Below, in pieces: positions 4,438-63,700 of a DNA stretch of 64,000 bases. Both the position numbers and the translations under genes were made by a program. Numbering within the stretch: position 1 is the first letter of the stretch; each line of letters begins with the position of its first letter. The stretch covers positions 90,481-154,480 of the forward strand of contig JAAOMT010000414.1 of the NCBI GenBank assembly GCA_016748015.1. Direction: 5' to 3'. The notes under the pieces are model-generated. The model saw only the letters and a program-made list of their open reading frames with translations. It ran no database searches and was not told the origin of the DNA. The stretch comes from Geosiphon pyriformis uo1. Its lineage: Eukaryota > Fungi > Glomeromycota.

Positions 4438-4439
4438 TT

Positions 4440-4455
4440 TGGTGCTCTCTGTGAG
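4440..4455 (+). promoter_or_regulatory. Primer-binding site tggtgctctctgtgag
   Basis: Starts 2 nt after the LTR end with TGG; homologues at ~22580, ~47041, ~52392 and ~61689. Complementary to a tRNA ending ..CUCACAGRGAGCACCA; tRNA identity uncertain (elongator Met- or Ile-like). Confidence 0.8.
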
Positions 4456-18367: not shown

Positions 18368-18427
18368 AATCAAACAATAAAAGAGTATATAAAGATACAG
18401 TATACATGACAAAAACAACCAAGAAAA

Positions 18428-19063
18428 ATAGAAATACCAGATCATATTCATGCCATAGCTCAACAATTATTCCAGGCCTTAAGTCAACAACTTTTAGACA
18501 TAGAAATTATCATTAACAACCAAACAATTTGCTATCAAAACACCAAAAGAAAAACAAAAAATACACCATATTAGCAGTTACCAAAGAATGATAAAAACTG
18601 GTTAGATAGCATAATAAAAAAAGTAAAAAACACTTTTGGGAAAATACCTATTATGGCACCAACAGAAAAACTTACAAAAAAGAATTAGAAGCAATGGACA
18701 AAACAACTTCCAATATTATACTGTTACTATTAATTAGGTCGAAAGTTAAATATTCAAGAGTTGTATATCAACAAATCCAAGAGAATATTTAACCAAAACA
18801 TAATACAGCAAATTGAAGAATTTATTGAGAAAAAAGTGAACTCAACACTACATGTGAGAACAATTTATTGACTGCACAACATATTTCAGAACTATCTAGA
18901 AATACTGTTATATTCTGACATGGAAACCATAACCATTAATCAATGAGGAAGAATAAACAATACACAAGTAGAAGATGTGAAGAACAGAGTTGAACAAACA
19001 ATACTAGAAAAAGAAGTATTAGAGCTAATTCAGAATGAAGATTTCAATGAAGCTCAATATTAA
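18428..19063 (+). pseudogene. ORF3 of A (unknown ~210-aa protein between IN and PPT)
   Basis: (M)EIPDHIHAIAQQLFQ...EKEVLELIQNEDFNEAQY*; homologous to ORF3 at 30634, 34958 and 60167. Confidence 0.7.
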
Positions 19064-19077
19064 AAAGGAGGAGATAA

Positions 19078-24600: not shown

Positions 24601-27600
24601 CAAAAACTACTCAGATCTGTTAAAATTGGCAATTAGCAATGATAATGCACCAACTAATCTCCAGTTCAGCTGTCCAGCAAACTGGATCTTAACAATAAAA
24701 TTCGGGAACTAACTATGCCCAAAACCTAAACACTCAACACTATTTAAGTCTCTTAATATTCCCAGAAATTACCACACTTAATCTATTGGAACCCAATCAA
24801 ATTCAACTAATTTTTAACAATATTTTATCAGCAACATTATTATATAACAACTTATGAACCAATTAGATTGCCAAGTTGATTGTGCTGCCAGTGCCAGAAT
24901 TATTATCACCAATAAGATAACAAAAATGCCTATTGGTAAGATTGACAACTTCTCTTTTAAAGTCAATAACATTATAATACTTATTAAAATATTGGTAATA
25001 GAAGTTACATAGTACTAAGCTCTAATTGGTAAAGACTAGTTGTTTAAAACCAACACTATACTCAACTAAATTACCCAAAAATTGCAACTCAGCCAAAATA
25101 ATCAGCACACTTAAGTACCAGTCATTTGTGATCATTTCAAACCCAGTATTACCCCAGCAACATTAATTGATATCAAAAAAGAAGAAAAAAAACCTACCTA
25201 GAAAGCCTATTAAGTATTGTGGACTAAAGAAAAACATAATAAGCTGTGACCAATTCTATTATGGGATGACAAAAGAAAAAGAAGAGAGAAAGATGAACCA
25301 TAAACCATTATCATCAGCAAAACTACAGACAATTAACACACTTTATACTCAGTAGACATGAAGAAAAAACCTTTTTATATCTCTCTTAAGTGTATTAACT
25401 GCAAAAAAAAGTTTTCATTTATGGAAGCTTGGGTCATGCCAGACAAAGATTACTAGATATATATCTGCTATTACTGTAAGCCATACCACTAAAAACACTT
25501 TGGCTATCCAAAATGACAAGGAAAATAGGACAATAAACCATGTCTTATTTGTAGAGAAATATTACTTGACAAAGAAATATGGAACAACATTCTTGATTGA
25601 GGAGGAACATATAACACATTATGCTAATACACAATCCTTATTAGTGATTAGATAAGCTAAAAAACTTCTTTTAATGTCACATAGAACTAAGCACTATCAT
25701 GTTTGGACAGTTACTCACATAACAAAAACAAAATCTGGCAAATAATAAAGACTAAAGTCAAAAACACTTTGCTTAGTGAAATATTGACAATTAAAAACAA
25801 TCCACCAGAACCAGTTAAGACTTTTTTTATCTCAAATTCAGATGTATTTTTTGATATTATAAGTGATTCAGAATAATTTTACAAGCACTATTAAGACTTG
25901 ATATTCACACAAAAAAAACAAGAACAATAATTAGAAAAACTAAACACCTAACTATGTAATTATTGTTTAATATCATGTGACTTTAAGTATTGTAATAAGT
26001 ATGATCTTATTTACAATCTACCACCACACATAATTTACATGATCCCAAAAGAAAAAAAACCAATTAGCAGCTGCAAAATAGAATCAGAATTACCACTCAA
26101 TTGTAATTCAAACTTTAACAATAATAGTAATATCAATAATTCCAGTTTCATTTAAAATGACAATAATAACAGTAATAATTCAAATTCTGATTTAAACTTA
26201 AAACAATATATTGCACTTTTTGATCTTTCCAAAGAGCAGGAACTCAAATAGTTCAGTGATAACAATAAAAATATTATGCCAAAATGAGCACATAATACTA
26301 ACACAGAATTTAATCTAAGATATCTAGAAAATGTTGTCATTAAATTGAAACCACATTCATGCATTTGTATAGATCTGAAATTAGCACTGAAAATTTTGAC
26401 AACAATAATAGTTCAATTAATATCTAAATATAGTTTAGCAAAAAAGAAAATCAACATCAGAAAAAAAATAATTGATGCAAAATATATAGAAAATATTATT
26501 GCAATGCTATAAAATAACTCAGAAAAAGAATATATTATTGAACCAAATAAAAAGATAGCACAAACAATATTCCTACCTTTGGTGAAAATAGCTCAGTTAG
26601 TATTAGTGGAAACAAAGAAAAAACTAGAAATAACTACAAGAGGGATAAATGAATTTGGATCTATAAATAGAATAAACATATTAGTTAATATAATAGAAGA
26701 AGAACCAATTGACAAAGGAAAAATTATTTCCATTAGTCAATCAATTTTTATTCCCCTATATAACCAGTATTTAGTAGTTATAGAAAGGAAAATAAGAGAT
26801 CAATCCCAAATTTTCAAAGTAGAAGCCACTATTTGTGAATCAGGAGAGATTACTATTACTAATTTCTATATATTGGCTAAAAATAACAAGCACATCAAAA
26901 TTTTCATTTACAACACAATAGAAAACATCATTGAAATACCAAGAGAAACCACTATTGAATACTTAAGCACTAAGGTTAAAGACCAATTACCAAGTACTAT
27001 TTCAGATTTTTTACAACTGTGTAAATATGTGAATATTACATTACAAGTAATATACAAACAAAAAGAATGTTATTTACTCCAACCAAAACAATTAGAACAA
27101 ATAAACTTGGAAAATCTAAACCCACTTCAACATATGTAACTTAAAATGCTACTTAACAATTTTACTGATATCTTTGCCAATAAAAATAAATTTAGCAGAA
27201 TTGACATTATTCAACATTAAATCAAAACTAGAGATGTAATGCCAATCAAACAAAGAGCATATAAAATACTATTATGGTTGAAATTCATACTTTTTATTAG
27301 TTATTACATATATTAGCCATTGATGTTATATAATTAGCCACTCTATTTTTAAATAATAATTATTAACTTGATTAATGACCTGATCAATGACTTGATCATT
27401 GATCTGATTATTAACCACTTTTGATAGCTATATAAGCAATAAATCTCTTAGCTAAAGAAAAAAATATCAGAAATTAAGAAAATAAAATAACAACTTTTAT
27501 CTCAATCTTTTTTTATCGCTAATTTTTTTTTCTCTATCTTCAAGTATCCAAACATCTTGGAATAAAAAATTACTTGTTGGTTATTTCCTAACTTTTTTTT

Positions 27601-30600
27601 GAAACGTATAATTGTAGCATTTAAAGATTATTGAATAAAATATAACTAAAGAGTACATCTAATACTTGATATTAAATTCTAAGAGCACTAATATAAAACA
27701 TAGAATTATATCAGTGTGTGATTATTTGTTGACAGTACAAATTATCTTTTTATTTTCAAATTCTCAGTTATTTTTTGAAAAATATAGTAACTGAGATATT
27801 TTATGAAACTGATCTTACATATTAAATTCATATTTATTCAATTCGCTCTTTGAAGTTGAATTCTTTTTGATTCCTTTCATTACTTTACAATCTTGTTCTC
27901 CTTTGCTATCTGTTAGCTTATTACTTCAACCCATAACAATACTACTAACAAGCCATAAGATTATCTAACAAGAAATCAACAGAATATTGAACAATGGGTT
28001 AATTCAATCATTAATAAGTTCATGATTGTCACCAGTAATACTAGTCCAAAAAAAGAATGGAAAGATCTGCTTTTGTATGGATTACAGAAAACTTAACAGT
28101 ATAATATGTAAAAACAGCTATCTAACTTTACAAATCCAAAAATTATTCAATGTATTTGAGGGAAAGAAATGGTTTTTAACATTAGATCTAAACAGTAGTT
28201 ATTGGCAAGTAATCATGAATTCAGCCAACAAAAAAAAAACAGCATTCACTACTAGAGAAGAGAACTTTGAATTTGATATTATGTCTTTCAGCTTAATAAA
28301 TGCTCCAGCTACTTTCCAATAGCTAATGGAAATTGTTTACATTAGACTACTATGAAAATCAATAGTAGTCTACTTAGATGACACTAATGTATTCTCAAAA
28401 ACATTTAATGATTATTTTCACTATCTTCAGCAAGTGTTTAAAAGATTAAGAAGAGCCAGATTAAAACTGAATGCAAACAAGTGTTTCTTTGGCAAAACAG
28501 AACTGAAATTTTTGAAACATGTCATAAGCAAAGATAACATTAAGACAGATTCAAACAAGATTAAGATCATCAAAAACTTTTTAGTATCAATAAATCTTAT
28601 AAAATTAAGAGCATTCTTGAAATTTGCTGAATACTATTGTTATTTTATCCAAAACTTCTCCAAATTGGCTTAACCATTTTATTAGCTCCAAGCCAAAAAT
28701 GTGAAATATGAATAGACAGAAACCCAACAAAAAGCTTTTGATATTTTAAGAAAAAAGCTTATTTAAACACCAGTACTAATCCATTCAAATTACAACAAAC
28801 TATTCATTATTACTACTGATGTATTAGGTCAAGCATTGAGAGCTGTATTGTCTTAAAAAGAACTAAATAGAAGAGAACACCCAGTAACATATGTCAGCCA
28901 AAGCTTAAGTCCAGCTGAAAAAAACTATAAAACTCCAGTACTAAAACATTTGGCTATCTATTAAACTATTATCAAATAGAAAGAATATTTGAGTTAAAAG
29001 TTTGATGTATATACTAATCACAAAGGATTGACATTAATCTAAAAGCAAAAATTTGGAAACAACTGTCACATAAGATAAAAAATAGAACTTTTACTATTTA
29101 TTTATACAGTACATTATAAAAAGAAAAAAAAATAGAAATGCCAACAGTTTGTTACAAATGAAACAAATCTAAGAACATTTCAACCCAAAAATATAACAAA
29201 AAATGAATACACAAAAAATATTTACAACTTCAGCATTATATTAATATTCAACAGTTTAAGAAAAAATTATTTCAAAAGAAGAAATTATCTCAAAAAGAAC
29301 AAAACAACATAAAACAACAATCAAAATATTTTATTACATATCAAAATATACTATATAAAAAACAGAAAAGATATAAATCAACTACTCAGAATAATCACAA
29401 AACTAGAGGAAAAACAATACTATACAATATGCACTTAGATTTGACAGCAAGACATTTTCATAAAGAAGTAACCATAAAAAAACCAGAAAAAAATAATATT
29501 GGTCATCAATGTATTCAGATATTATTTAATACATTCAAAATTGTAATGTTTGTCAAAAAAGAAAAAAAACAAGACTCAGTAAACTATTAAGAACAATTAA
29601 AGTAGAACAATTATTTGATCAAATTGAAATTAACTTAGTCAAACTATTGACAATAACCAGTAGAAAAAATCATTATATAGCAATAGTCATAAATTATCTT
29701 ACAAAATGGCCAGAAACAAAAGCAATTCAAAGAGCAAATACAGAATTCATAGCCAAATTTGTTTATCAAAACTTGATATGTCAACACAAATATTCAAAAG
29801 AATTGTTATCAAACCAAAAAACTCATTTTGTAAACAAAACATTAGCAGAATTAAGTCAAAAATTTGGAATCAAAAGACTATTATTATTATCATATCATCC
29901 ACAAACCAATAACTTAGTTAAAAGATTTAACTAAACATTATGTAAAACAATAATTAAGATTAGCCAAAAAAATCAGGACAAATAAAATTTGTTTATACTA
30001 TTAGTATTATTTGCTTATTGAACAATGAAGCAAGATATCATACAAACAACACTATTTAAACTTGTTTATGATAGAACAGCAACATTATCAGTTAAAATAG
30101 ACATCAACACATATTCAACAGAACTAATAACAGAAGCCAACTTCTAAAAAACATTGCTAAGAAAAACATACAAACTAATAGAAATATTAGAAAACAAAAG
30201 ATAAAAAGCAGTTGATAACATTCAAAAGTCACAAAAAAAACAAAAAAAATAACATAATAACCAATTACCAAATAAACCAGTTAAATTCAAAATTGGAGAC
30301 AAAATACTTTTACATTATACCAAAGCAAAAAAACAATGGAATAAAAAATTTAACCCCAAATAGAATGGACTATTTCATATTAAAGAAATTCTAGGAAATA
30401 GAGCTTACAAATTAAGATAGAACAACAAAATTTTAGCTAAAGCAGCACATAAAAATTGACTAAAATCATATCACAATATAGTATCATCATTCACCAGTAA
30501 TATTCTACAACTGGAAGCACAATAAATACTAATCTAACCAGATAAAATTCCACGAAATTTGGAACCAATTATAATCATTGACCAAAACAATATAAAAAAC

Positions 30601-32183
30601 ATGGTATATGTAATAAAAGCAACAAACAAAAAAATGGAAATTCCAAACCACATTTATTTAATGGCTTAACAATTATTCCAAGCTGTAAATCAACAACAAT
30701 TAGATATTAAAATTATTATTAATCACTAAACAATCTGTTATCAGAACACCAAAAGAAAAAAAAAGTAGGAAATACATCATATCAACAACCATTAAACTCA
30801 ATAAAATATTGATCAGATAAAATAATAGAAAAAGTAAAAAATACTTTTGAGAAAATATTCATAATTATTCTAATAGAGAAGCTAATAAAAAAAAGTTGAA
30901 AACACTAAACAAAACAACTTTCAATACTATACTGTTACTATTAATTAGAACAAAAGCTAAATATTCAAGAATTATATATTGACAAATCCAAAAAAATATT
31001 CAATCAAGAAATAATATGGCAAATTGAAAACATTATCAGAAAAAAAATAAACTTATCATTTCACATTAGAACAATTTATCGACTATATATTATATTTCAA
31101 AATTATTCAAAAATACTACTACACTCAGAAATAGAAACAATAATCATTAATCAATAAGGAAATATAAACAACTTACAAGTAGAAAACATAAGAACCAGAG
31201 TTGAACAAACAATATTAGATAAAAAAGTAATAGAATTTATCTAAAATAAAATTTCAACAGAGTTCAATATTAAAAAAAAAAGAGATAATATTACTCATAG
31301 AAAAGAGTACAAGAAAAAATAGTAGGAAAAACAAATAGGAAAAATAGACTAATAAAAGAATAGTATTAAACATATAAATATATTGCTTGTGAATTATGAC
31401 ATATTGCTTAGCAATATAAATATTGCTTGAGAAATTATAGCATATTGTTCACAAATGTGTAAAATCTTATAGAACATTAATTATGTATATATAGCAAAAG
31501 TATTAGAAGCAAAAAAGACAGAATTAATAAGTAAAATTAATAGCTAAAACAAAACAGTTAGAAGCAATTCAAAATTCATATTTCATATTAATAAATTATT
31601 AATTATCACTTAAACTTATGTTATCATCACTTAATTAAAGCATATCAATTATTTCCACTCTATCAACATTATATGTTAATAGAATCTGATACTTAACTAT
31701 ATTAAACCAATAGCTCTTGATTATAGCTATTAACAAAATACTAATTTTTATTTTATTTTTTTATTTTTTTTTTATTTTTTTTTATTTTTTTATTTTTTTT
31801 TTATTTTCTTTGTTGTTTGTTGATTTACTAATTGATTAAAAAAATTAAGCACTGAGTAATTGATGTTAAAAATAGTCTGATAAAAGACTCTAAAGGAAAG
31901 GTATCAAGTTTAAAAATTTAAGAATAGCTTATTAGAAGGACATAACTGTTAGAATAAAACCAACCACCACATTAAAGAAAAAAATTGAATGGAATTGCGA
32001 CTCCAAAAAACTATTGACACATATTAAATTTTTGTTCATTATACAAAGAACTTAACCAAAACTTTCAGACAACCAAAATCTTCAGATATTAAAACCTTCA
32101 AATATTACCAACAATATAAGCTATTAAGTACCAAATTATGGGTTTGTTATTTGTTTTTATACTCCAAATAATCATTTGTAACA
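21677..32183 (+). mobile_element. Full-length, older decayed LTR retrotransposon C (same lineage as A)
   Basis: LTRs 21677-22577 and 31289-32183; TSD actc/gctt (ancestral gctc); YLDD at ~28371; IN ATG 29203; ORF3 30634-31273; protease active-site region deleted at ~24838. Confidence 0.88.
27270..27938 (+). repeat. Solo LTR family X copy 2, inserted at the start of RT in C
   Basis: tattatgg...ccataaca termini; atac TSD (27266-27269, 27939-27942); 12-nt tgatca-type repeats then gctatataag. Confidence 0.88.
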
Positions 32184-46237: not shown

Positions 46238-49200
46238 TATTACTCATAGAATATAAAAAATATATTAACATATAAATTAGCCAATCAGAAGTAGCCATAG
46301 TAAATATGAAATTCCAGAATTTTTCTTAGAAGAATTACAAGATTCCAAGAATTTTAGAATTCTTATACAAGAAATCACAAGATTTCAGAATTCCAGAATT
46401 CTTCTTAAAAGAATTAAGAAATTTCAATTATGTATATACAGCAGTAGCATTAGAAAAAGAAAAAACAGATCTCTCAGTTTAGATTTGATTTAAGGAACCT
46501 TTTTATTTACAAATATCAATAAATAACTATTCACTATCTTAATCTATTCTCTACTATCAACACTTCATGTTGATAATAACTGATACTTAACCACACTGAA
46601 ATAATAGCTCTTAATCATGGCTATTAATGGAATACTAATATTTATTGTTTTGGCTTATTTCTTTATTTTTTTTCATTTTTTTCATTTATTTTCTTTTGTT
46701 ATTTCTTTTTGTTTTACTAATTGATTAAGGATTAAAAAGTGCTGAGTTACAGATGTCATAGGGACTGGTAAAAGACTTATGAAACAAGAGTAAAACACTC
46801 ATAATTGAGAATAGCTTACCAGAAGGATTACCAGCCACCATGCTAAGAATGAAATTCGATGGAATTGTGATTCTGGAAGACTACTGAAACAACAATTGAA
46901 TCTTTGTTTATTATACAAAAGACTCCACCAAAATCTTCAGATTATGAAAACCTTCAAAAATCAACATCATTAAATCAATTGAGCACCAAGTTATGGGTTT
47001 GTTATTTGCTATAAGACCCCAAATAATTACCTGTAACATTTGATGCTTCCTGTAAGATATAATTTTACAGAAAACCAGTACCAACAACAAGTCATCCAAA
47101 AATGGCAGAATCAGAAATAATAGAGACAAATCATTTAGGATTTGCCAAATCCTTATTTCAATAATACAGCCAACAATTGGACTTAACCAATAATTATTAT
47201 CTAGCAGAATTAGTTTTCAACTTTTATGTCAACAAAAAAATCACAGATTTTCTTAAAAGACCAGTTGACATTGAATTAGCAAGAGAAAATTTCTATACAG
47301 AATTAATCCAATATATCAGCTTACCACAAAATCACAATTTTGCACCAATTATCAGAGAAATTAATCAAAAAATTGAAAGATACACTCAATAACAATTCTC
47401 TATTACCTATGCAAATAAGGGTAAAGGAAAGTTACAAACACCAGCAGCAACTTCAAAAGGAATATAATTACCAACATGAAAGAAACAAAGAATTGAATCT
47501 CCACTATATCCATTATATCATTACATACTCAAAAGTACCATCAATATTACATCAGCAAGTGTGTTCACATTAAACATAATATTAACATTTAGATGACTTT
47601 TATTTCAAAGTAAACAAAAAAAAGCAGAATTATAGGGAACTTATAACAATTACTTTAAAGGATTCAAATCTCAATCTCCAACACTATCAGAATTTCAATC
47701 ACCATCACTTCAACCAGATTTTGGAACTGTGAGTCCCTGGGAGATAACCGAATTAGAAGAAAAGAAAAACAACAATTAGGAATTTAATTACCAGAATCTG
47801 ATTGTAGAAAACTCAGAAGTTGAAACTCTGAATATTCAAACTCAGGAAAATCAGAATAATCCAAATTCTAATATTAATAATTAACAATACTTACCTTTAA
47901 TAATTGTTATCAATCCACCATCAGTTGCCACACAACAACAACCATTGTTACAACCTCAAATTTAGTTACCACCTTAACAACAACAACAACAACAACAATA
48001 ACCAAACTTGGATTCAATGGCTTATGCTCCAATAGCAAAACTTGAAAAGTTTATGGGCAAAGAAGATGATGTCTAAATATGGCTCAATGATGTCAAAAAA
48101 GCCATCATGACCAATGGATGGAATGACACAAAAGCCCTCTAAGCCATTCCATATTTTCTCTAAAATACTGCCAACTCATGATATCAAAGCTTGGTTAACA
48201 AATTCCAAGATTTTAATGCATTCAAGCTTGTATTTCTACAATATTTCAGTAACAATAATAGCATTAACTGCTTGGCAAATACTTTTATCACCATTAAGCA
48301 AGAAAAAACTGAAGCAGTTACTACTTACCTAGAATGCTTCCATAGGAATCTGGACCAAATTCAGGCAATACAAACCAATTATTTTACAGCACCACAAATT
48401 TTAAATCAATTCATTTGAGACTTGTACAGTAGCATTCTCTAATGTATACATCCATTACACTTAGCAAATCTTCAAGCAGCAATTACCTATGTTAGAGATT
48501 TTGAAGCCACTGAATTAGAAGCCAATCATAATCAAGCTGTGAATTTAGTAATGAACAGATCATTTAATTTGGATTCCAAATTAAAACAATTCAGTAATTT
48601 GATCAATCAGAAATTAAAAGAATACTTAGCTAACAATCAGGCAATTTATTAATCTTCACAGTAATACAATAATCAAGAAAATGCAAACTGTTTCCAAAAT
48701 CAGTCATGTTTGTTATCATTAATCAATCAGCAATAGCAGTAGGAGATGTGTGTTTGCCATTATTGTGATAAACAAAAACATTTGAGGATTGACTGCAGAT
48801 TAAGAATAGATAACTAATGATTGGAAAATTAATATTAAAACCTTGATCACCAGTTTCAAACTCCGAGATATCAATTCAACCCAGAACTATATTAACCAAA
48901 TTATTTATTAGTGATACAGCTACCAAGTTATTAACCACCCATTTATTAGACTCCAATACCAGTTATTTATTAACTACAGTCACAAATAATATATTAATCT
49001 CAACAAATTCTAACACCAACACCAAACTCAGCTTAGATAACATCAAAAAATCCCAGATCTAAGGTCACTCAAAACTGGAGATCAGCAATAGTTGTTTACC
49101 AGCTGATTCCCAGCTCTTTAAATCAGTCATCAAGATTACATCAGTGGAATTCAGAAACCAAGTACACCCAAAATCCAAGTTTCCAGAACTATTTAAGTCT

Positions 49201-51557
49201 TCTGGTTACCCCAGAAGACACCACATTCAACAACTTGAAAGTCAAACAAAAGCAGCCACTTACTAACAATATACTACTAGCAACCATTATTGAGAACAAA
49301 TTACTTACTGCTATCTTCTCTTTTGAACTTGAGAAATCAGTTAAAATGCTGCTATTTAATAGAGCCATCCTAGAATTAAAACTCATTACTGTAATATATA
49401 CAGATGCTAAAGTTGATGGGCAACACATTAAACTGATTCTAGACAATAAATCAGCTGACAGTATTATTATCTGACAATTCATAGATCAATTAGGTTGCTG
49501 AGTTGATTGTGTTATCAGTGCACAAATAATTATGGCCAATAGAGCAATAAAGACTCCAATTAGTGAAATAGATGACTTTCCATTTGAAGTCAATGGCATC
49601 TTAATATCAATCAAGGTATTAATAATAAAAACAACTCAGTATTAAGCTCTTATCAGGAATAACTGGTTGTCCAAAACTAATGCCATGCTCAACTGAAACA
49701 CCCAAGAACTACAGCTCAGCCAAAACAGCCAATACACATGTATATTAGCCACTTGTGATCATTTTAAGACCACTACCAATAACAAGCCATTTATCAAATT
49801 AGAAGAAAAAAAAAAAACCTACCTAAGAAGCCTACCAAGTTTTCTGGGCCAACACCAAACACAACAAGTTACTACCAGTATTTTTCTGGGATAACAAAGG
49901 GAAAAAAAGGAAAAAAATACACCAAAAGAAGACACCATCACAAAAGAAATAACTAGTGGCTAAGAAAAATTTTACTCACACAAGCCACCAAAGCAATTGT
50001 TATATATTCTACTCAAATGCTAAGATTGTGACAAGAAACTTTCTTTTATGGAAGCTTGAATTGCATTCAACAAAAATTACTAAACATAAATTCACTATTA
50101 CTGCAAACCATACCACAGAAAATAGTATGACTATCCAAAATAACAAGACAAGTGGGACAACAAACTATGTCTCACTTGTAAAGAACAATTACTTAACAAA
50201 GGAATATGGAATAACATTTCTGGTTAAGGAGGAATATACAACACTTCATACCAGTACATAATCTTTATCAACAACTGAGTAAGTTATGGAACTTCTATTA
50301 CTGCAGCCTGGCACCAAGCAATCTCTCATTTGGATGGTTACTCACATAATGAGGACAAAATTTAGCAAATGGTAAATACTAAAATCAAAGGAGCCATGCC
50401 TAGCAAAATCTTAAAAATTAAAAATAATCTTTTAGAACCAGTCAACATCGTCCTTATCCCAAATTCAGATGCTTTTTTTAACATAGAAACAAGTCCAAAA
50501 GAGTTTTATAAGCACTATCAGAATTTAGCATTCACAAGAGAGAAGCAGAAACAGTGTTTAGAATAACTAAACACCCAACTATGTGACTATTATTTGATTT
50601 CATGTAATTTTCAATATTGTAATGAGTGTAATCTCATCTACAATCCACTATCATGCATGATTTACATGATTCCAAAGAAAGATGAACCAATTAGCAGTTG
50701 TATATCAGAATTAGAATCACCATTCAATTTTGATTTAAACTCTGACAATGATGATGACAATAACAACAGTTCCAGCTCTGTTCAAATTGGCAATAGTGAT
50801 AACAACAATTCAAACTCAGATTCAAACCCAAACAATACATTGTGCTTTCTGATTTTACCAAGAAACAGGAACTAAGATGGTTCAGCAATAATGATAAAGG
50901 TATTATGCCAAAATGCATGCATAATACTAATGCAGGGTTTGATCTAAAATATCCAGGAAAAGATGCCATCAAATTGGAACCACATTCACACACCTGCATT
51001 AATCTCAAAGTAGTCTTGGAAATTCCAACAACAACAATAGTTCAATTAGCATCTAGAAGTAGTTTAGCAAAAAAAGGAATCAACATCAAAGAAGAAATAA
51101 TTGATGCAAAATATGTAGAAAATATTATTGCAATGCTACAAAATAACTCAGAAAAAGCTTATATCATAAAGCCAAACAAAAAGATAGCACAGACAATATT
51201 TCTGCCTTTGGTAAAAATAGCTTAATTAGTGTTAATAAGAAACAGAAAAGAATTAAGGATTACAACTAGAGAGATACAGAAATTCGGATCCATGAATAGA
51301 ATAGATATACCAGTTAATATGATAGAGAAAAAAATTGTTAACAAGAGAGAAATTATCTTTACTCATCAATCAATTTCCATTCCATCATATGATTAGTATA
51401 TAATAGCTATAGAGAGAAAAGTAAAGGATCAGATTCAGATTTTTGAAGCAGAAGCAACACTTTGTGAATCAAAAAAGATTGGATTAGTTAATCTACACAT
51501 ACCAGCCAAGAACCACAATTACATCAAAATTTCTATCTATAACAACATGGAAGACAT
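46238..51557 (+). mobile_element. 5' part of LTR retrotransposon D (LTR 46238-47038, gag to dUTPase), inserted in G and interrupted by E
   Basis: tattactcatag...tgtaaca LTR, PBS, gag ATG 47102, LILD, AGFDL/SRSS; breaks off in the second dUTPase-like domain at the next LTR. Confidence 0.85.
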
Positions 51558-54500
51558 TGTTACTTATAAAATATAGGAAGTATATTAGCATATAAATTTG
51601 CCAATTAGAAATAGCTGTAGTAAATATGGAATTTCAGAATTTCTCTTAAGAAGAATTGCAGAATTCCAGGAATTTCAGGATTCTTGTACAAAGGAATTGC
51701 AGAATTCCAAAAATTTCAAGATTCCTGGTATGAAAAATTAAGAAATTGAGAAATCTCAATTATGTATATATAGCAGTAGTGTTAGAAACAGAAAGAAACA
51801 GAATATTTTAGTTAGAGACCTCCTAGTTTAGATTTGATCTAAGCAATCTTCTATTCACAAATATCAATAAATAATTATTCATTATCTTAATTCACTCTTT
51901 ACTATCAACACTTTATGTTGATAGTAATTAATACTTAAACACACTGGAACAATAGCTCTTGATCATGGCTATTGATGGGATACTAATATTTATTGCTTTG
52001 GCTTATCTTTTTTATTTTCTTTTATTTCTGTTATTTTTTTTGTTATACTAATTACTTGAAAATTAAGTGCTAAGTTATTGATGTTACAGATAGCCTAATA
52101 AAAGACTCCAAAGGAAGAGTATAGGAATTAAAAAGTTAAGAATAACTTACCAGAAGAGCATCTCTGCCAAGATTACTGACCACCATGCTGAGAAAAAAAT
52201 TCGATGGAATTGTAATACTAAGAGACTATTGAGAAGACAATCATTGAATCTCTGTTCATTATACAAAGAACTCTACAACAAAATCTTCAGATAAACAATG
52301 CCTTCAGATATTACCAATAACATTATCAATTAAGCATTAAGTTACAGATTTGTTATTTGATTTGAGACCCCAAATAATCACTTGTAATATTTGGTGCTCC
52401 CTGTGAAGTATAATTCTACAGAGAACCAGCACCAGCCAACAACCATCCAAAAGTGGCAGAATCAGAAATTATAGGGACAAACCATTTAGAATTTGCCAAA
52501 TCCTTATTTCAACAGTACAGCCAACAATTGGGCTTAACCAACAACCACTACCCAGCAAAATTTGCTTTCAACTTTTATGTCAACAAAAAAATTACAAACT
52601 GTCTAAGAAGAACAGTTGACATTGAATCAACAAAGGAAAACTTCTATACAGAATTATTTCAACACACCAGGTTATTAAGAAATCACAGTTTTGCACCAAT
52701 CATTAGGGAAATTAACCAAACCATTCAAAGATACACTCAACAACAATTTCTTATTACCTATGCAGACAAAGGCAAAGGAAAGTTACAAACACCAACAGTA
52801 ACACCTAAAAGAATACAACTACCAACTTAGAAGAAAACAAGAATAGAATTACCAACAAATCCATCATACTACTATATACCAGGAAGTGCTATCAACATTA
52901 TATCAACAGGTGCATTCACATCAACCATGACATCAATATTTGGATAATTCACATTTCAGAGTAAACAAAGGAAAGAAGATCTTCTAGGACCATATGGCAT
53001 GTATTTTGAAGGATTTAAGTTATGATTGTCAACACTATCAAGACTTCAATCCCCACCACCCCAACCAGATTTCAGAACCACGAGTTCTTGGAAAATAATG
53101 GAATCAGAAAGAGAACAGGAAGAACAGGAAGAAGAGGAAGAAGAATTTAAAGATCAAGAATTTACTTACCAGAACCCGATTCCTAAAAACCCGGAAGTTG
53201 AAACTTCAAATCTGCAAACTCAGCAATATTTAAACTTAGAAAATCCAGAAATCAGAACTCTGAATATTCAAGCACTGCCAAATCAGGACAATTCAAACCC
53301 CAAGTTAATTAATCAGCAAAACTTACTTTTAGTAATTGTCACTGATCAGCCATTCATTGAACAGATTTAACAGCAGTAAATACCACTACAGCAGCTATTA
53401 CAACAATCACTTCAATCACCACAACAATTAAACATAAATCCAATGGCCTATGCCCCAATAACAAAACTTGGAAAATTCACAGAAGCAGAGGACAATGCAC
53501 AAATATGGCTCAACAATATTGAAAAAGCCATTACAGCCAATGGATAGAATAACACGAGAGCTCTACAGGCCATCCCATATTTCTTACAGAATACTGCCGA
53601 CTTGTGGTATTAAAGTTTGGCCATTAAACCACAAACATTCTAGGAATTTAAAATTGCATTCTTGGAATATTTCAGTAATAATAACAGTATTAATTATCTA
53701 GCCAATACCTTCACCACCATCAAACAAGGAGAAAATGAAGCAGTTACTACTTACTTAGGATGCTTCCACAGAAATTTGCATCAAATCCAGACCATATAAG
53801 CTGATTATTTTACAGCACCACAAATTCTGAATCAATTCATTAGAGAACTGCACAGTAGTATCCTCCAGCACATATGTCCAATGCATTCAGCAGATCTTCA
53901 AGCTGTGGTTACAAACGCCAGAGATTTTGAATCAGTTGAACTCGAAGCAAACCATGCACAAACCATAAATCTAGTAATAAATAGATCATCTGAATTGGAT
54001 TCTAAACTAAAACAATTCAGTGATTTAATCAATTAGAAATTAGAAGAATACTTAGTTGACAATTGTGAAATTTATCAATTTCCCCAATAATGTAATAATC
54101 AAGAAAACTCAAATCATGTCCAAAATCAATCGCATCCAACATCATCAACCAATTAACCATGGCAACAGAAAACGTGTGTATGCCACTATTGTGGTAAACA
54201 AAGACATTTGCAATTTGAATGCTGAAAAAAGATAAGCAACCTAAGATCAGCTAATTAGTATCAAAACTTTAATTGCTAACTACAACCACAGAATTACATC
54301 AGTAATCAATTACTAAAACAATATCAACTAAATTACCTACCTATGACACAACAGCCAATCTATCAACTACCAGTTTATTAGCCAACAACACCCATAATTT
54401 ATCAACCATAGTTCCAGCTTATTTATTAGCCACAGTCTTAAGTAATTTATCAACTCCAACAAATTTAAACACTGCCACAAAACTTACCTCAAAATGGAAC

Positions 54501-57500
54501 CCAAAGGCCAAAACTGACACAACAGAGCTGGAGATTGTTGATGGTAGTCCATCAACTGATCCCCAGTTCCTTAACCCAGCCATCAAAATCTTGACAATGA
54601 AATTCGGGCACCAGGTACACCCAAAACCCGAATGTCCAACAGTATTTAAGTCTTCTAATTACCCCGAAAGATGCCTTACCTAACAACTGGAAACCTAAAC
54701 AAAAGCAGCCACTTACCAATAATATTCTGCCAGCAACTATTTCCAATAATGAATCTCTAGTAGCTATTTTTCCTTTTGAATTCAAGGAAACCACACCAGT
54801 CCCATTATTCAGTGGAGCCACTCTTGACACCAAACTGATCACTGCCATGTACACTGATGCAAAAGTGGATGGTCATGCCATCAAACTGATTCTAGACAGT
54901 GGATCAGCTGGCAGCATCATTACACAACAACTCATGGACCAATTAGGTTGCCAAGTTGATTACACTGCCAGTGTATGCATAATTACTGTTGATGGAACAA
55001 CCAAAACTCCCATCGGTGAGATTGATGACCTCCCAATAGAAGTCAATGGCATCATAGTGCCAATCAAAGTATTAGTTATGGAAGCCACCTAATATCAAGC
55101 TCTAGTTGGGAACAATTAGCTGTCTAAAACCAACATAACACTTAACTGGACCACTCAAGAGTTGCAAATCAGTCAAAATGGCCAACATATGCAAACACCA
55201 GCAATGTGTGGTCATTTTAAGACCACTAATGTGCCAACACCATTAATAGAACTCAAAGAAAAGATAAGCAAACCTTTTTGAAAAGCCTATCAAGTATCAT
55301 GGGCTGACAAGGACCACAACAAACTACTGCCAATACTTTCTTGAGACAACAATGAAAAAAAAACACAAAAAAAAAAACTTACCTGGAATGCAAACCAAAC
55401 CTGGGAAACTAACAATGGCTCAGACAAATTACCAACTTGGAAATAGGAAAAAACCAACAAAGGGAAAGGAAAAAGGAAAGAAGAAGACCTACTTAAAAAA
55501 ACCACTACCATGAAAGAAACAACTAGTGATTGGGAAAGAGAGTACTCACAGAAACCAATAATAGAACCACCATACATACCTCTCAAATGCAAAGACTATA
55601 GAAAAAAACTTTCTTCCATGGGAGCTTGGGTTGTGCCAAATAAAGATTACTGGATGTAAACTTACTATTACTGCAAGTTATGCCACAAAGAATGTTATGG
55701 CTATCCAAAGTAACAAGGCAAGTGGGACAATAAACCATGTTTTGATTGTGGAGAACAGTTGCTTGATAAAGGAATGTGAAATAACATTTCTGGTCAAAGA
55801 GAAATGTGCAACACTTTGTGCCAATACACAATCTTCATTAACAACTGGGTAAGTCATAGAACATCTGTTACTGCCACCTGGCACCAAGCAATCTCCCACT
55901 TGGACAGTTATCCACACAATGAAAACAAGATTGGTGGATAACGAACACCAAAATAGAAGGCACCATGCCCAGTGAAATATTAGAAATCAAGAACAACCCC
56001 CCAGAACCAGTCAACATTGTATTGGTTCCCAACCCAGACACTTTCTTGGATCTGGAAACAAATCCAGAAGAATTTCATGAGCACTATCAAAATTTAGCAC
56101 CCACTAGAGAAGAATAAAAGCAGCATTTAGAGCAGTTGAATACTTGATTATGTCAACATTACTTAATTTTCAGTGACTTTCAATATTGTAACAAGTGTGA
56201 CTTTATTTACAATTCACCAACATGCATGATTTATACAATCCTGGAAGAAAAAGAACCAATTAGCAGCTACGCATCAGAATCGGGATCAACTTTCAATCCT
56301 GATTCAAACTCTAATAATGATGACAATGAAAATAACAGTTCTAGCTCTATTCAAAATGGCAATGAAAATTATAATAATTCAGACTTTGATTCAAACCCCA
56401 AAACATATATCATGCTTTCTGACCTTTCTAAAAAATAGGAACTTAAATAGTTCAGTGATACCAATGAAGGTATTATACCAGAACGTGCACATGATACTGA
56501 TGCTGGGTTCAATCTGAAATATCCAAAGAAGGATGTCATCAAATTAAAACCACACTTGTGCATATACATTAATCTCAAAATAGCATTAGAAATCCTAGCA
56601 ACAATAATGGTTCAACTAGCATCTAGAAGTAGTTTAGCAAAAAAAGGAATTAACATCAGAGGAGAAATAATTGATACAGGATACATAAAAATATCATTGC
56701 AATGCTACAAAATAATTCAGAAAAAGCCTATGTCATAGAGCCAAATAAAAAGATACACAAGTAATATTCCTGTCTTTGGTAAAAATAGCTCAATTAGTAT
56801 TAATAGAAAACAGAAAAAAGTTAGGGATTATGGCTAGAGGGATACAAGAATTTGGATCAACAGATAGAATAGATGTACCAGTTAATATGACAGAGAAAGA
56901 TATTATTAACAAAGGAAAAATTATTTCCACCCATCAACCAATTTCTATTCTACCATATGACCAGTACATGATAATTATAAAAAGAAAAATAAAGGATCAG
57001 GTTCAGATTTTTGAGGCAGAAGCAACACTTTGCAAATCAGAAGAAATTGGTTTGGTTAACTTATACATACCAGCAAAAAATCATAGTCACATCAAAATCC
57101 TCATTTATAACAACACAGGAGATATCATTGAGATACTAGCAGGAACCACCATCAGATACTTGACCACAAAAATTAAAGACCAATTTCTAGACACCATTCC
57201 AGACTTTCCACAACTGTGTGGATATATAGACATTATATCACAAACAATATATAGATGAAAAAAATGTTATCTGCTTCAACCAAAACAGTTGGAATAGATA
57301 AACATGGAAAACTTGGATTTACTTTAATATATATAGCTCAAGATGTTGCTCAACAACTTTAATAACATCTTTGTCAATGAAAATAAATTTGGCAGAACTA
57401 ATATCATCTAATACCAGATCAAAACTGAAGATGCAATGCCAATCAAACAAAGAACATACAGAGTACCACCAGCCAGCCATGAAATTATTTGTCAAGAAAT

Positions 57501-58730
57501 CAATTGGATGCTTGACAACAGATTAATTTAATCATCAATAAGTTCATAATCATCACCAGTGGTATTAGTCCATAAAAAAATGAGAAAATCTGCTTTTGTG
57601 TAGATTACTGGAAATTGAATGGAGTAACCAAAGGTAATAGCTACCCAACTCCAAAGATTCAAGAGCTGTTTGACACTTTTGGAAAGAAGAAATGGTTCTT
57701 AACTTTAGACTTAAATAGCAGTTACTGGCAAGTAGCCATGAAACCAGAAAACAAAGAGAAAATGGCTTTTACAACTTGAGAAAGAATTTTTGAATTTGAA
57801 GTAATGCCATTTGGCTTGATAAATGCACTAGCAATATTCCAATGATTAATGGAAATTGTATATACTGGGCTACTATGGAAATCAGTAGTCATATACTTGG
57901 ATAACACCAATGTGTTTTTAAAAAGATTTGATAATCATCTGCATCATTTCTAACAAGTATTTGAAAGACTAAGAAGAGCCAAATTAAAACTAAATGCAAC
58001 CAAATGTTTCTTTGGAAAAACTGAACTCAAGTTTTTGAGACATGTAGTAAGCAAAGATAAAATCAAAACAGATTCAAACAAGATTGAAACTGTCAAGAAC
58101 TTTCTAGTACCAAATAATCTCACAAAATTAAGAGCATTCTTGGGATTTGTGGAATACTACTGTTGTTTTATCAAAAACTTTTTAAAAATAGCTCAACCAC
58201 TACACCAACTCCAAACAAAAAACACCAAATATGAATAGACAGAAATTCAGCAAGAAGCTTTTGATACATTAAGAAGAAAGCTTATTCAACTCCCAATACT
58301 AATTTATCCGGATCATAGCAAGCCATTTATAATCACAACTGATGCATCTGGTTAAGCATTGGAAGCAGTATTATCTCAGAAAAGACTGGACAGACAAGAA
58401 CATCCAGTAGCTTATGCCAGTAAAAGCTTAAATCCAGTTGAAAAGAACTATGGAACTCCAGCATTGGAACACTTAGCTATCTATTGGGCTGTCATTAAAT
58501 GGAAAAAATACTTGAGTCAAAAATTTGACATATATACTGATCACAAAGGATTGACTTTAATTCAGAAACAAAAATTTGCAGATGATTATCATGCCAAATG
58601 GAAAATAGAACTTTTACCATTTAATTATACAATATATTATAAAAAAGGAAAAAAAAATGGAAATGCTAATGGATTGTTGTGAATAAAACAAATCTAAAAA
58701 AAACATTTCAACTCAAAAATATAACAAAAG

Positions 58731-60106
58731 ATGAATATACAAAAATATTAACAACTCCAACATTATATAGATACCCAATTATTCAAGGAAAAATTATCTC
58801 AAAAAGAACAAAACAACATAAAACAACAATCAAAATATTTTATCAACCATCAAAATATATTTTATCAGAAGAACAAAAGAAATCCAGATCAACTAATCAG
58901 AGTAGTTACAGAACCAGAGAAAAAGACAATATTATTCCACATGCACTGAGATTCAACAGCAGGATATTTTCATAAAGAAGCAACTATGGAAAGAATCAGA
59001 AAAAAATACTATTGGCCATCAATATATTCGAATATTATTCAGTATGTTTAAAATTGTGATGCTTGTCAAAGAAGAAGTGAAACAAAACCCAGTAAACCAT
59101 TGAGACCAATCAAAGTAGGACAACTATTCAACCATATCAGAATTGACTTAGTTGGATTATTAACAATTACCAGCAGAAGCAACAGATATATTGTGATAGC
59201 CATGAATTATCTTACAAAATAGCCAAAAGCAAAAGCCATTCAAAGAGCAGATGCAGAATCCATTGCCAAATTTGTTTATCAAGATTTGATCTGTTGACAT
59301 AGATGTCCAAAAGAACTATTATCAGATTAAGGAACCCACTTTGTAAACAAAACATTGACAGAATTAAGTTAAAGATTTGGAATTAAAAGACTATTGTCAT
59401 TATCATATTATCCACAAATTAATGGATTAGTCAAAAGATTTAATAGAACACTGTATGAAGCAATTGCTAAGATTAATCAAGAAAACCAGAATGAATAAGA
59501 TTTGTTTATACCATCAGTATTATTTGCTTATTGGACAATGAAGCAAAACACTACACAAGCAATACCATTTGAATTAGTATACAGTAGAACAACAATATTA
59601 CCAGTTGAAATAGAAGTCAACACTTATCCAACAGAACCAATAACTGAAGACAATTTTCAGAAAATGTTGCTAAGAAGAACATATGACTTGATAGAAACAT
59701 TAGAAAACAAATGGCGAAAAGCAGCTGATAACATCCAAAAGTCACAAAAAAAACAAAAAAAAAGACATGATAACCAACTACCAGAAAAACCAGTTGAATT
59801 CAAAATTGGAGACAAAGTACTTTTATATTGTACCAAAGCGGAAAAACAATGAAATAGAAAATTTGACTCCAAATAGAACAGATCATTTCACATAGAAAAA
59901 ATTCTTGAAAATAGAGCTTATAAATTAAGATAGAACAACAAAATCTTAGCCAAAGCAGCACATGGTGATTGACTGAACCATATTACTATATAGTGTTACC
60001 ATCCACCAATAATATTCCACAATTAAGAGTATAAAGAATACTAGTCCAACCAGATGAGATTCCACAAGATCTGAAACCAATCATAATTATTGGACCAAAC
60101 ATGTAA
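58731..60106 (+). pseudogene. Integrase ORF of E with its own ATG
   Basis: MNIQKY..LQHYIDTQLF...MHxDSTAGYF..CDAC...IDL...EKQ...IIIIGPNM*. Confidence 0.85.
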
Positions 60107-60166
60107 AATTGAATAATAAAAAGAGGATATAAAGACATAATAGACGCGACAGAAGACTTCAGAAAA

Positions 60167-60792
60167 ATGGAAATCACTAACAACATTCACTTATTAGCAC
60201 AACAAATTTTCCAACTGATTTAACAACAAAATATGGAAATTACTATCAATCAACAAACTATTTAATACTGAGATACTAGAAAGATATCCAAATACAAAAG
60301 TCAAAAAAAAACAGAAAACATTATTAACAAAATGGTTCTGAAAATAAAATTAGCAATAGAAGAACCAACAAGTATTACCATATATCAAGAGTTGACCAAA
60401 GAAACTTGGAAATGATGAATACACAAATTTCCAAAAAACTTTTGTTATTTCTACTTGGGACAACACTTGAATATTCAGAACTTATACATGGACAAAACAA
60501 GACAATTATTTAACACAACAATACTGCAACAACTAAAACAATTTGTGGAAAAAAATAATTTGACCACACAAGTAAGAGCCATCTATAGACTACATATGGA
60601 ATTTCAAGACAGACTAGAAATCTTACTTAATTCAGAATTGGACTCTATTACAGTTAACCAGATAGGAAAAATAACCAACACCCAATTTGAAGAATTACAG
60701 AACAAGATAACCCAAGCAATTCTTAAAAAAGAAGTTCAAGAAATATTCAATGGCAGAGAATTAAAGTTAGGAGATTTGGGAGATCTTGATAG
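60167..60792 (+). pseudogene. ORF3 of E (unknown protein)
   Basis: ATG 60167 is in frame with track ORF 60455-60847: MEITNNIHLLAQQIFQL...CYFYLGQHLNIQNLY...VRAIYRLH...ITVNQIGKITNTQFEEL. Confidence 0.75.
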
Positions 60793-63700
60793 TGTTACTT
60801 ATAAAAAGAAAACAGATATAAAAAATAGCAGATCAATAAGAGAATAATATTTAGCATGTGAGCATATTGCTTAGTAATATGGAGCAATATCAAAAATCAT
60901 AGCACATTGCTTAGCAATATAGAGCAATATCAGAAAGCAATATCAGAAAGCATGGCACATTGTTCAGCAATGTGGAGCGATGTTAGAAAATTAGGGCACA
61001 TTGTTCAGCAATGTGAGCATTGCTCAAGAAATCATAGCACATTACTCAAGAATGTGAGCAATCTTGTAGAACATCAATTATGTATATATAGCAGTAGCAT
61101 TAGAAGTAGAAAGAGCAGAATCTTTTGGTTAAAAATTTTCCATCCACAAATATTAAATAAATAAATTATTCACCATCCAAATCCACTCTCCACTATCAAC
61201 ACTTCATATTGATAGTAATTGATACTTAACCATGTTGGAACAATAGTTCTTGATCATAGCTATTGATAAGATACTAACTTGTACATCGTCTTGGCTTATT
61301 TCTTTATTTTCTTTTATTTCTTTTTTTCTTTAATTTTGTTGTTGTATATTAACTGATTAAAAATTAAAGCACTGAGTAATTAACGTCACAAATAGTCTGG
61401 TAAAAGACCCAGAAATAAGAGTAAAATTATATATATATTAACAGATAGCTTACCAGAAAGGCACAAATGCCAGAATAAACCAGCCACCAAGCTGAAAACA
61501 GAAATTGGGAACACAACTCACCAACCAACTACATTGTCATTGAATTTCTGTCTATTATACAAAGAACTCAATGCTAAAACCTTCAGATACAACCAACATA
61601 CCAATAACACCAGCTTTGTCAAGATATTGAGCACCAAGTTACAGATTTGTTATTTGATTTGAGGCCCCAAATAATCATTTGTAACATTTGATGCTCTCTG
61701 TGAGATATAATCTTACAGAGAACCAGTACCAACAACACCCATCCAAACAGTGGCAGAATTTAAAGAAACAGGAACAAATCATTTAGAATTTGCGAAATCC
61801 TTATTCCAACACTACTGTCAACATTTAGGATTAATCAACAACCACTTATCAGCAAAATCAGCTTTTAATTTCTACATCCACAAGAAAATCTCATATTTAT
61901 TAGGAGTACCAGTAGAAACCAACTCAGCCAGAAAAAACTTCTACAATGAATTAATCCAGAATACCAGCCTATCAACAAATTACAATTTCACAGCAATTCT
62001 CACTAAAATCAATAAAGAAATTGAAATTTACACTCAACAAAGATATTTAATTACCTATGTAAACAAAGGCAAAGGAAAACTGCAAACACCAGCAGTAACA
62101 CCCAAAAAGATACAACCACCCACTTGGAAGAAAACAAGAGTTGAGTCACCAATTAATCCATCATATTATTATACACCCAAAAGTGCCATCAATATTACAG
62201 ACGCATCCACATCAAACACAACATCAACCTTTGGACAATTTTTATTTCAGAGTAAACAAAAGAAAGAAGATCTTCTAGGACTATACGGCGCATATTTCAA
62301 AAGATTTAAGTCTCAATTGCTTATGCCATCAGGACTCCAATCTTCACTACCCCAACCAGATTTCAGAACTGCGAGTTTCTAAGACGTAACAGAATCAGAA
62401 AAAGACCAAGAAGAAAAGGAAGAAGAATCTGAAGATTAAGAATTTACTTACCAGAACCTGATCACTGGAAATTGAAACCCTAAACTTTCAGACTTAGCAA
62501 AATCTAAGTTTAAAAAATCCAGAAATTAAAACTCCAAATTTTCAAATGCAGCACAATCAAAACAATCAAAACTCCAATCTAATTAATTAACTGGACCTAC
62601 CTCCTGTTATCATTATTAACCCACCACCAGTTGAACCAATTGGCCAGCCACTACAACAACTACACCAGCAGATTCAACAGCCACTAATACCATTTCAACA
62701 ACCACCACAACCCAACTTAGATCCAATGGCATACACACCAATAGCCAAACTCAAAAAATTTACTGGCAAAGAGAACAATGTCCAAGTATGGCTAAATGAT
62801 ATGGAGAAAGCCATTGCAGCTAATGGATAGAATGACACCAGAGCCATGCAAGCCATCTCATATTTTCTCCAGAATACTGTCAATTTATGGTACCAAAGTC
62901 TGGTTAACAAACCCCAAGATTTTAATGCATTTAAAATTGAGTTTTTAAAATACTTCAGCAACAATAACAGCATTAACAAGCTAGCAAACATCTTCACTAC
63001 TATCAAACAAGAAGAAAATGAAGCAGTCACTATTTACTTAGAATGCTTCCATAGAAATCTGTGCCAGATCCAAGCCATTAATGCCAATTATTTTACAGTA
63101 GCCCAGATCCTAAATCAGTTTATTCACAGATTATACAGCAGCATCCTGCAATGCATATGTCCAATGCATCCCATCGATCTGCAAGCAGCTGTCACAAACA
63201 CCAGAGATTTTGAAGCCACTGAATTAGAAGCCAACCATGTCCAAGCCATTAATCTAGTAATGAATGGATCATCTGAATTGGATTCCAAATTGAAACAATT
63301 TAGCAATTCTATCAATTATAAATTAAAGGGATACTTAACTGACAATCACACAATTTATCAACCACCACAACGATGCAATAATTCTGGAAATGTGAATCAC
63401 TTCCAGAATCAGTCACATCCATCATTATTGACCAATCAACAGTGGCAACAGAAAATGCATGTTTGCTACTATTGTGGTAGACAAGAACACCTACAAATCA
63501 ATTACCACTATTGCTTAAATAACCAACAATTAGGAAATTAATATCAAAACCCTGATCACCAGTTTCAAATTCCGAATAACCCACCAAACTCAGAACCATA
63601 TCATCAGAATTACTTACCTATGATGCAACAGCCACCTTATCAATCACCAGTATATCAAATGCCAATTTATTAGCTGTAGTCACAACCAATTTATTAGCCA

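Follow-up and report, generated by a model that had tools for sequence, protein, structure and literature searches.

The stretch analysed here (the window) comprises 64,000 nucleotides of Geosiphon pyriformis uo1 (Glomeromycota), positions 90,481 to 154,480 of the forward strand of contig JAAOMT010000414.1 (GenBank assembly GCA_016748015.1). It is dominated by decayed copies of one long terminal repeat (LTR) element family of the Ty3/Gypsy type, in which the integrase (IN) is encoded by an open reading frame (ORF) of its own downstream of the pol stop codon and is followed by a third frame, ORF3. Copy letters were assigned in this analysis and may not equal those of an earlier note on this DNA, made from the sequence alone. 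The claim of that note that homologous copies share one layout was confirmed by copy comparison. The layout is set out below for copy E (51558-60792, + strand), which runs from the LTR and primer binding site (PBS) through gag, protease (PR), a Cys-rich domain, dUTPase, reverse transcriptase (RT) and RNase H (RH) to a stop, the integrase ORF and ORF3.

51558..52389, +: 5' LTR of copy E, of the subfamily of the LTR at about 46240
52392..52408, +: PBS, beginning TGG, identical in the copies at 4440, 47041 and 61689
52411..53442, +: Gag N-terminal extension, in frame with capsid, changes in excess at the third codon position
53443..53950, +: capsid (Retrotrans_gag at 53572-53845)
54181..54222, +: nucleocapsid (NC) CCHC knuckle, read off the translation
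54856..55126, +: aspartyl protease, in the gag frame
55582..56198, +: Cys-rich domain of about 200 aa with conserved Cys
56451..56868, +: dUTPase, with a frameshift near 56690 in copy E
56887..57190, +: conserved post-dUTPase domain of about 100 aa, weak dUTPase resemblance
57576..58235, +: RT core, decayed, found by Pfam
58240..58697, +: RNase H and the family-wide pol stop (stop codon 58695-58697)
58698..58730, +: A/C-rich spacer of 33 nt without AUG, containing a second in-frame TAA (58722-58724)
58731..60106, +: stand-alone integrase ORF with HHCC motif, DDE core and GPY/F-type end, no chromodomain
60167..60790, +: ORF3, about 210 aa, homologous to the ORF3 of the metagenomic relative L005
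60765..60792, +: polypurine tract (PPT) of copy E, imperfect; a clean PPT lies in copy A at about 19063-19077

The Pfam matches in copy E follow the order Retrotrans_gag, aspartyl protease, dUTPase, RVT_1, RT_RNaseH, Integrase_H2C2 and rve (the last below the Pfam curated cut-off), confirming the domain order from gag to integrase that had been given earlier. A chromodomain was found neither in copy E, again as claimed, nor in the Pfam annotation of any of 120 near-length integrase relatives. The N-terminal extension, capsid, CCHC knuckle, protease and first half of the Cys domain of copy E share one frame, and its integrase ORF carries a 1-nt deletion near 59975.

The pol stop and the second in-frame TAA are both present in copies A, C and E, and the integrase ATG at 58731 is preserved in E and C, with ATA in its place in A. 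The gypsy-type element is high-copy and decayed. A 5-kb query recruited 47,431 contigs of a DNA run containing window sequence; CpG observed/expected is 0.10 in the decayed copies versus 0.79 in a younger related element nested in copy A; and 167 of the 175 differences between the E and A integrases are transitions, leaving 8 transversions. Such heavy decay is the argument for regarding the stops and ORF3 as artefacts of post-insertion C-to-T change. (Repeat-induced point mutation as the decay process was rejected, CpG being depleted and TpA not enriched.) Change of CAA to TAA has reached just 3-4 of 26 such sites per copy. The junction is covered by 654 contigs, from a run that may be the window's own source and samples copies, not independent organisms; at the two TAAs and the ATG no alternative letter reaches 4% of depth, in contrast to the neighbouring base 58713, variable in 93% of depth.

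Metagenomes were scanned with an integrase alignment, and the best 80 of 536 confirmed stretches were considered. In all 34 loci with an RNase H upstream of the integrase, pol stops and the integrase occupies an ORF of its own that starts with Met, lying in phases 0, 1 and 2 relative to pol in 11, 10 and 13 loci; no upstream RNase H was detected in 46 of the 80. A search for near-length integrase relatives, by which fused forms could not be returned, listed 120, and 118 of these have a Met start, mostly at the homologous position. Because the stops are common to A, C and E, fixed across the 654 contigs, and paralleled by a split in 34 of 34 relatives, they are not products of decay. With the stops fixed through both the family and its intact relatives, and with codon-position bias in ORF3 (below), the decay explanation is barely credible. 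A three-ORF layout with integrase and ORF3 outside pol is almost certain, and the sequence of stop after RNase H, integrase ORF, stop and ORF3 proposed in the earlier note was confirmed. That note had suggested looking for a pol continuous through the integrase; all 34 loci are split, and one apparently fused relative (P0158, below) lies inside the clade.

The elements were placed among gypsy relatives. In a joint RT-RH and IN tree of 60 rows, all 21 separate-integrase elements, three Glomeromycota gene models and P0158 cluster together (92/96), separate from the hits labelled animal or plant. The phylogeny proposed earlier thus recovers a single group, with the reservation that the backbone of the IN-only tree is poorly resolved. 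Tree references are search hits, mostly unnamed, and the named clades Gmr1, Osvaldo, Mag and Athila/Tat are not among them. The best PDB match of the L029 pol is Ty3 Gag-Pol (E 1e-102), well above caulimovirus and retrovirus RTs. Viral contigs gave one distant fused pol when searched with the integrase, and no match for a 905-aa ORF of the nested element. As a separate observation, protease and RT are separated by an in-frame stop in L009, L011, L019, L030, L062 and L059, which suggests a second split or a read-through site in some sub-clades.

ORF3 differs between copies E and A at 80, 47 and 117 first, second and third codon positions, a pattern that shows purifying selection at the level of the coding sequence; comparisons of E with C and with D were dropped for poor alignment (19% and 31% identity) and had little or no third-position excess. 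The window ORF3 matches that of L005, its sister in the integrase tree, with 26% identity over 217 aa (E 4e-17), and the ORF3s of the relatives are one family. A profile of 18 relatives and 10 database proteins found a match in 36 of 81 loci by hand count, 18 of them outside the training set. Where at least 650 nt lie downstream of the integrase, 23 of 34 loci have an ORF3 match and 11 have none. The window type is tied to the broad family only via L005, with E 4e-4 against a profile without L005, above 200 shuffles. Conservation of ORF3, the other point that had been singled out for checking, is accordingly borne out by selection, by L005 and by the 23 matching relatives, and stops short at the 11 without a match.

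In intact elements ORF3 lies between the integrase and the PPT-LTR; it is followed by a PPT in L015, L029, L047, L050, L051 and L024, and L059 has terminal repeats of 435 nt. The predicted fold of the L034 ORF3 is confident and all-helical (predicted local distance difference test score, pLDDT, 93). Nothing above background was found for ORF3 in Pfam, PHROG, PDB-sequence, Atlas or fold searches (best Z 4.3), and there was no env Pfam hit. A transmembrane stretch was found in 0 of 19 ORF3s, the highest 19-residue hydropathy being 1.3 or less. The earlier description 'retrovirus-like' should not be read as implying an envelope, ORF3 having no transmembrane segment. A likeness to DUF1016_N was dropped, with E 0.11 in only 1 of 28 members.

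Three further observations concern ORF3. In L016 (1945-2886) a NUDIX hydrolase ORF follows the integrase, replacing the usual ORF3. Between copies E (58731-60790) and A (16991-19063) the ORF3 proteins are only 42% identical and the LTR types differ, against the 8 transversions between the integrases; on this comparison, ORF3 and LTR seem to have been exchanged between subfamilies. An ORF3 homolog, P0136, occurs on a 2.4-kb contig of a bacterial metagenome-assembled genome, possibly as fungal contamination of the bin.

A covarying hairpin, new here, was found just 5' of the integrase ATG in 19 loci, always on the sense strand. It has 9 bp, a conserved 12-nt bulge and an 8-nt loop; 100% of the cells pair, and 6 of the 9 pairs show compensatory change.

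L029:4457-4509, sense: hairpin, reference locus, supported by covariation
L007, L015, L021, L025, L027, L032, L034, L039, L040, L043, L045, L046, L050, L051, L052, L060, L065, L066: hairpin, other 18 loci

The hairpin occurs neither in the window nor in most branches of the clade, by a search that may have missed more distant copies. Rfam contains nothing that matches it. A search with its pattern hit prokaryote genomes 4 times, in no case with a pairing stem or an integrase close by, and viral contigs 0 times. Readings as a hammerhead or an iron-responsive element do not fit. Separately, pol extends 240-400 aa past RNase H in L015 (4339-5163), L027, L029, L047, L050 and L051. The extensions have a Cys/His cluster in common and match no Pfam family. 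Extension and hairpin occur together in five of the six loci (L047 has the extension only, and L007 the hairpin only), so the extension might be the binding partner of the hairpin.

How the integrase would be translated was judged from its starts and spacers. A purine stands at -3 in 32 of 34 integrase starts (background ATGs, 499 of 885) and a G at +4 in 28 of 34. The pol-IN spacers range from -20 to +727 nt with a median of 61, and 6 of 34 starts overlap the stop; the L050 spacer is counted past one stop in its pol extension and would otherwise be 943 nt. The 21 short spacers are G-poor and contain 7 AUGs, versus about 18 expected. We tentatively favour, at a probability of roughly 45%, that ribosomes terminate at the pol stop and reinitiate slightly downstream. 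On the full-length RNA they would resume at the integrase AUG, which would set the integrase dose independently of Pol cleavage. Taken off Gag-Pol, the integrase would have to enter the particle or reach the cDNA another way. ORF3, predicted to be a soluble helical protein, would be a candidate helper for integrase delivery or RNA export, a role that is plausible though somewhat doubtful. The dUTPase likely limits uracil in the cDNA.

The principal alternative, plausible though somewhat doubtful, has the integrase and ORF3 made from spliced or internally promoted RNAs of their own, as foamy-virus Pol is made from its own subgenomic RNA; ORF3 could then be a Rev/CERV-like exporter of unspliced RNA. 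The strong initiation context fits ordinary scanning equally well, the window spacer ends in AG directly before the ATG, and the long AUG-rich spacers of L011, L055 and L059 need a bypass. In the available text of the sources, the ORF3s of LTR elements typically come from spliced messages (PMC5408684) and the Cer1 export factor is encoded by a spliced mRNA (PMC10309623). Against such RNAs, the 34 loci have no common YAG acceptor position ahead of the integrase ATG and no shared branch-point position, L001 and L010 lack a YAG within 100 nt, and a subgenomic RNA would not account for starts clustered at, or overlapping, the pol stop. Production of the integrase as a Pol fusion by read-through or frameshifting draws on the in-frame start in A, C and E and the phase-0 loci among the relatives; with two in-frame stops in the window family, all three phases and so wide a range of spacers among the relatives, and a conserved Met in initiation context, it is very unlikely. 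The hairpin, with its compensatory pairs at the integrase ATG, could position ribosomes at the start in the manner of an internal ribosome entry site, or regulate it, in at least one sub-clade. This is unlikely, since it is missing from the window and most branches and could equally be a packaging or protein-binding signal. On origin, the separate integrase may be a captured Ginger-type DNA transposase and not a split pol, which is compatible with stop-and-restart translation. The available text on Ginger1 describes stand-alone gypsy-like integrases with TGT ends and 4-bp target-site duplications (TSDs) (PMC2836005), and proteins joining IN to OTU or Ulp1 occur among the longer hits. In the IN tree those proteins (P0161, P0220, P0235) are not part of the fungal group, the RT-RH and IN trees contain much the same group, and a fused relative lies within the clade, which makes capture quite unlikely.

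Several observations weigh against our preferred account of a separate integrase made by stopping and restarting. Reinitiation after a long ORF is usually inefficient, and the UGGGA motif of calicivirus-type reinitiation occurs in only 2 of 34 junctions, about background. In three loci the spacer is 365-727 nt long and contains 7-12 upstream AUGs, which simple rescanning could not cross, so one mechanism may not serve the whole clade. A search for longer proteins placed five Glomeromycota gene models on top; in four of them the motif that ends RNase H is missing where the parts meet, and on the protein sequence alone these four look joined across an intron; the linker of P0160 is an unusual 92 aa long. 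P0158, encoded on a metagenomic contig of 3.6 kb, is a continuous RT-RH-IN with a 7-aa linker. The window element pairs weakly with P0156 and P0158 (83/86) inside the clade, and because the fused P0158 falls there, the integrase split is not universal; a clade without P0158 was not rejected by the approximately unbiased test (p 0.31). Compared directly with the broad ORF3 profile, the window ORF3 gave E 0.15, within shuffles, and an hhalign probability of 0.5%.

The window family was compared with known systems. It has the PR-RT-RH-IN order of Metaviridae, and its RT-RH groups with the gypsy type among gypsy pols. Like Ty3/Gypsy elements such as Ty3, it has gag ahead of this order, a CCHC knuckle, TG...CA LTRs, a PBS, a PPT and a 4-bp TSD; unlike them, it has the integrase beyond pol, started from a separate ATG, and a third ORF after it. 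TG...CA LTRs, PBS, PPT and a TSD of 4-6 bp are all present in copy A and the nested element, but not all in copy E; intact relatives have the LTR ends, PBS and PPT. The usual Metaviridae layout, with the integrase within pol, is not what was found. Neither is the membrane fusion protein of Errantivirus or other env-bearing elements at ORF3. Foamy viruses and Cer1 of C. elegans likewise express an enzyme or regulator separately from the Gag polyprotein; foamy viruses separate the whole Pol from Gag, and Cer1 adds CERV and keeps its integrase in pol. The textbook scheme has integrase reach the particle as part of Gag-Pol, and a widespread separate-integrase clade must solve the translation of a downstream ORF and the packaging of a free integrase differently.

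Reviews, in their available text, list integrase as a pol domain (PMC12440569; PMC3248453; PMC10224137). A dUTPase between PR and RT has already been described in PosPlaTy3-5 and in Phanerochaete and Tuber elements (PMC2864245), as in the window; these come from a chromovirus survey whose available text mentions no separate integrase, and the Cys domain of the window was unmatched to them. The bdelloid rotifer elements Juno, Vesta and TelKA likewise have a dUTPase in pol and diverse ORF3s, but as far as the accessible sections go their integrase is within pol and their ORF3s are env, GDSL, DEDDy or transmembrane proteins, whereas the window ORF3 belongs to no Pfam family (PMC5408684). Ginger1 shares with the window a stand-alone gypsy-like integrase, the GPY/F motif, TGT ends and a 4-bp TSD; it is described, in the text available, with terminal inverted repeats, no RT and a C-terminal OTU or Ulp1 protease domain (PMC2836005), whereas the window integrase sits inside an LTR element, between RT-RH and the PPT-LTR. 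Troyka and Kuafuorterviruses are also recently defined LTR lineages, but of animal hosts in the excerpts available, and Troyka has CG...CG ends and 3-bp TSDs, neither of which was seen here, mostly one Gag-Pol and no GPY/F (PMC12440569).

The open literature yielded no account of a gypsy clade whose integrase is separate, with subscription journals, Geosiphon genome papers, supplements and Repbase/Dfam/GyDB outside that coverage. The layout is probably an undescribed variant of Ty3/Gypsy organisation. The full picture of an old undescribed fungal Metaviridae clade with an operon-like pol, a separately translated integrase, a sub-clade RNA element and integrase delivered to the particle by ORF3 is doubtful as a whole. 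Since the layout separates the integrase from pol, many Glomeromycota 'integrase' genes are annotated as stand-alone. The intact relatives supply short natural junctions and a compact covarying hairpin suited to reporters. LTR expansion makes up 41% of the G. pyriformis genome according to the available text of PMC11952901, and the window family is probably part of it.

At E <=0.001 the search found 248 relatives of the Cys domain; some 14 Cys and one His persist in its divergent members. It is likely, from this pattern, to bind zinc, and purifying selection on it is shown by sequence comparison. Among 40 relatives scanned, gag, protease or dUTPase accompanies the domain in 25, while 14 have no Pfam match and 1 an unrelated one; P0285 has PR-Cys-dUTPase-spacer-RT in a single frame (46% identity), and 7 of 8 relatives checked for source are G. 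pyriformis proteins, so that this species or a near relative is the probable host of the family. The domain itself has no Pfam match. Its model is moderate (pLDDT 76, predicted template modelling score 0.47), and the fold search gave only partial helical matches (best Z 5.3) that barely covered the zinc-cluster parts. Neither the Cys domain nor the dUTPase occurs in any of 14 metagenomic relatives spanning PR and RT, so both mark only a Geosiphon-type sub-lineage. The earlier proposal of a distinct lineage thus stands for a non-chromovirus Ty3/Gypsy lineage with a stand-alone integrase and a third ORF; its accessory modules are not lineage-wide, with 0 of 14 for Cys/dUTPase and the ORF3 gaps given above.

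The post-dUTPase domain, earlier called a degenerate dUTPase, is indeed a conserved domain; its dUTPase origin is weakly supported, by an hhalign comparison with dUTPase (P=0.0045, probability 7.7%, 39 columns; reversed control P=0.68), and no dUTPase was among its PDB hits.

The other copies and LTRs in the window are as follows.

3529..20870, +: full-length copy A (TSD TTGG/TTAG), carrying two nested insertions
5891..12153, -: younger related element nested in copy A, TSD ATGC, RT to IN deleted
21677..32183, +: copy C, full length, more strongly decayed, one insertion
46240..51557, +: partial copy F, broken by copy E inside the post-dUTPase domain
60793..61686, +: LTR of the copy-A subfamily, followed by the PBS and internal region of copy H

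LTRs have TG...CA-type ends and, as had been claimed, a PBS after them, whereas the PPT of copy E is imperfect and its LTRs are of different subfamilies: its 5' LTR and the LTR at 60793 share about 70% identity, only across the 3' 630 nt. For this reason no TSD was demonstrable for copy E, and it is not a clean provirus. The 4-bp TSDs described earlier were verified in copy A and, as an exact ATGC/ATGC duplication, in the nested element; the TSD of copy C mismatches at 2 of 4 positions. A repeat at about 3250-3528 and 20875-21200 contains copy A, and the same repeat at 27240-27950 is empty. This paralogous empty site carries a single TTGG (27557-27560), which makes the pre-insertion target of copy A visible.

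The nested element has the open 905-aa NC-PR-Cys-dUTPase frame, without RT or IN. A programmed gag-pol frameshift in it was rejected, as the shift precedes NC and homologs are continuous there. Its gag piece at 6351-6931 sits between two N-gaps within its 3' LTR and is probably an assembly artefact. In the Gag N-terminal extension (52090-52900 and the matching parts of A, F and H), stops at the LTR/PBS border that are common to all four copies (E, A, F, H) are followed by about 170 codons without a Met, and the U5 part of the LTR contains an open frame in copies A and H. At 37800-44400 (+), decayed long ORF fragments resemble, by eye, a long interspersed nuclear element (LINE-type) with RT and RNase H.

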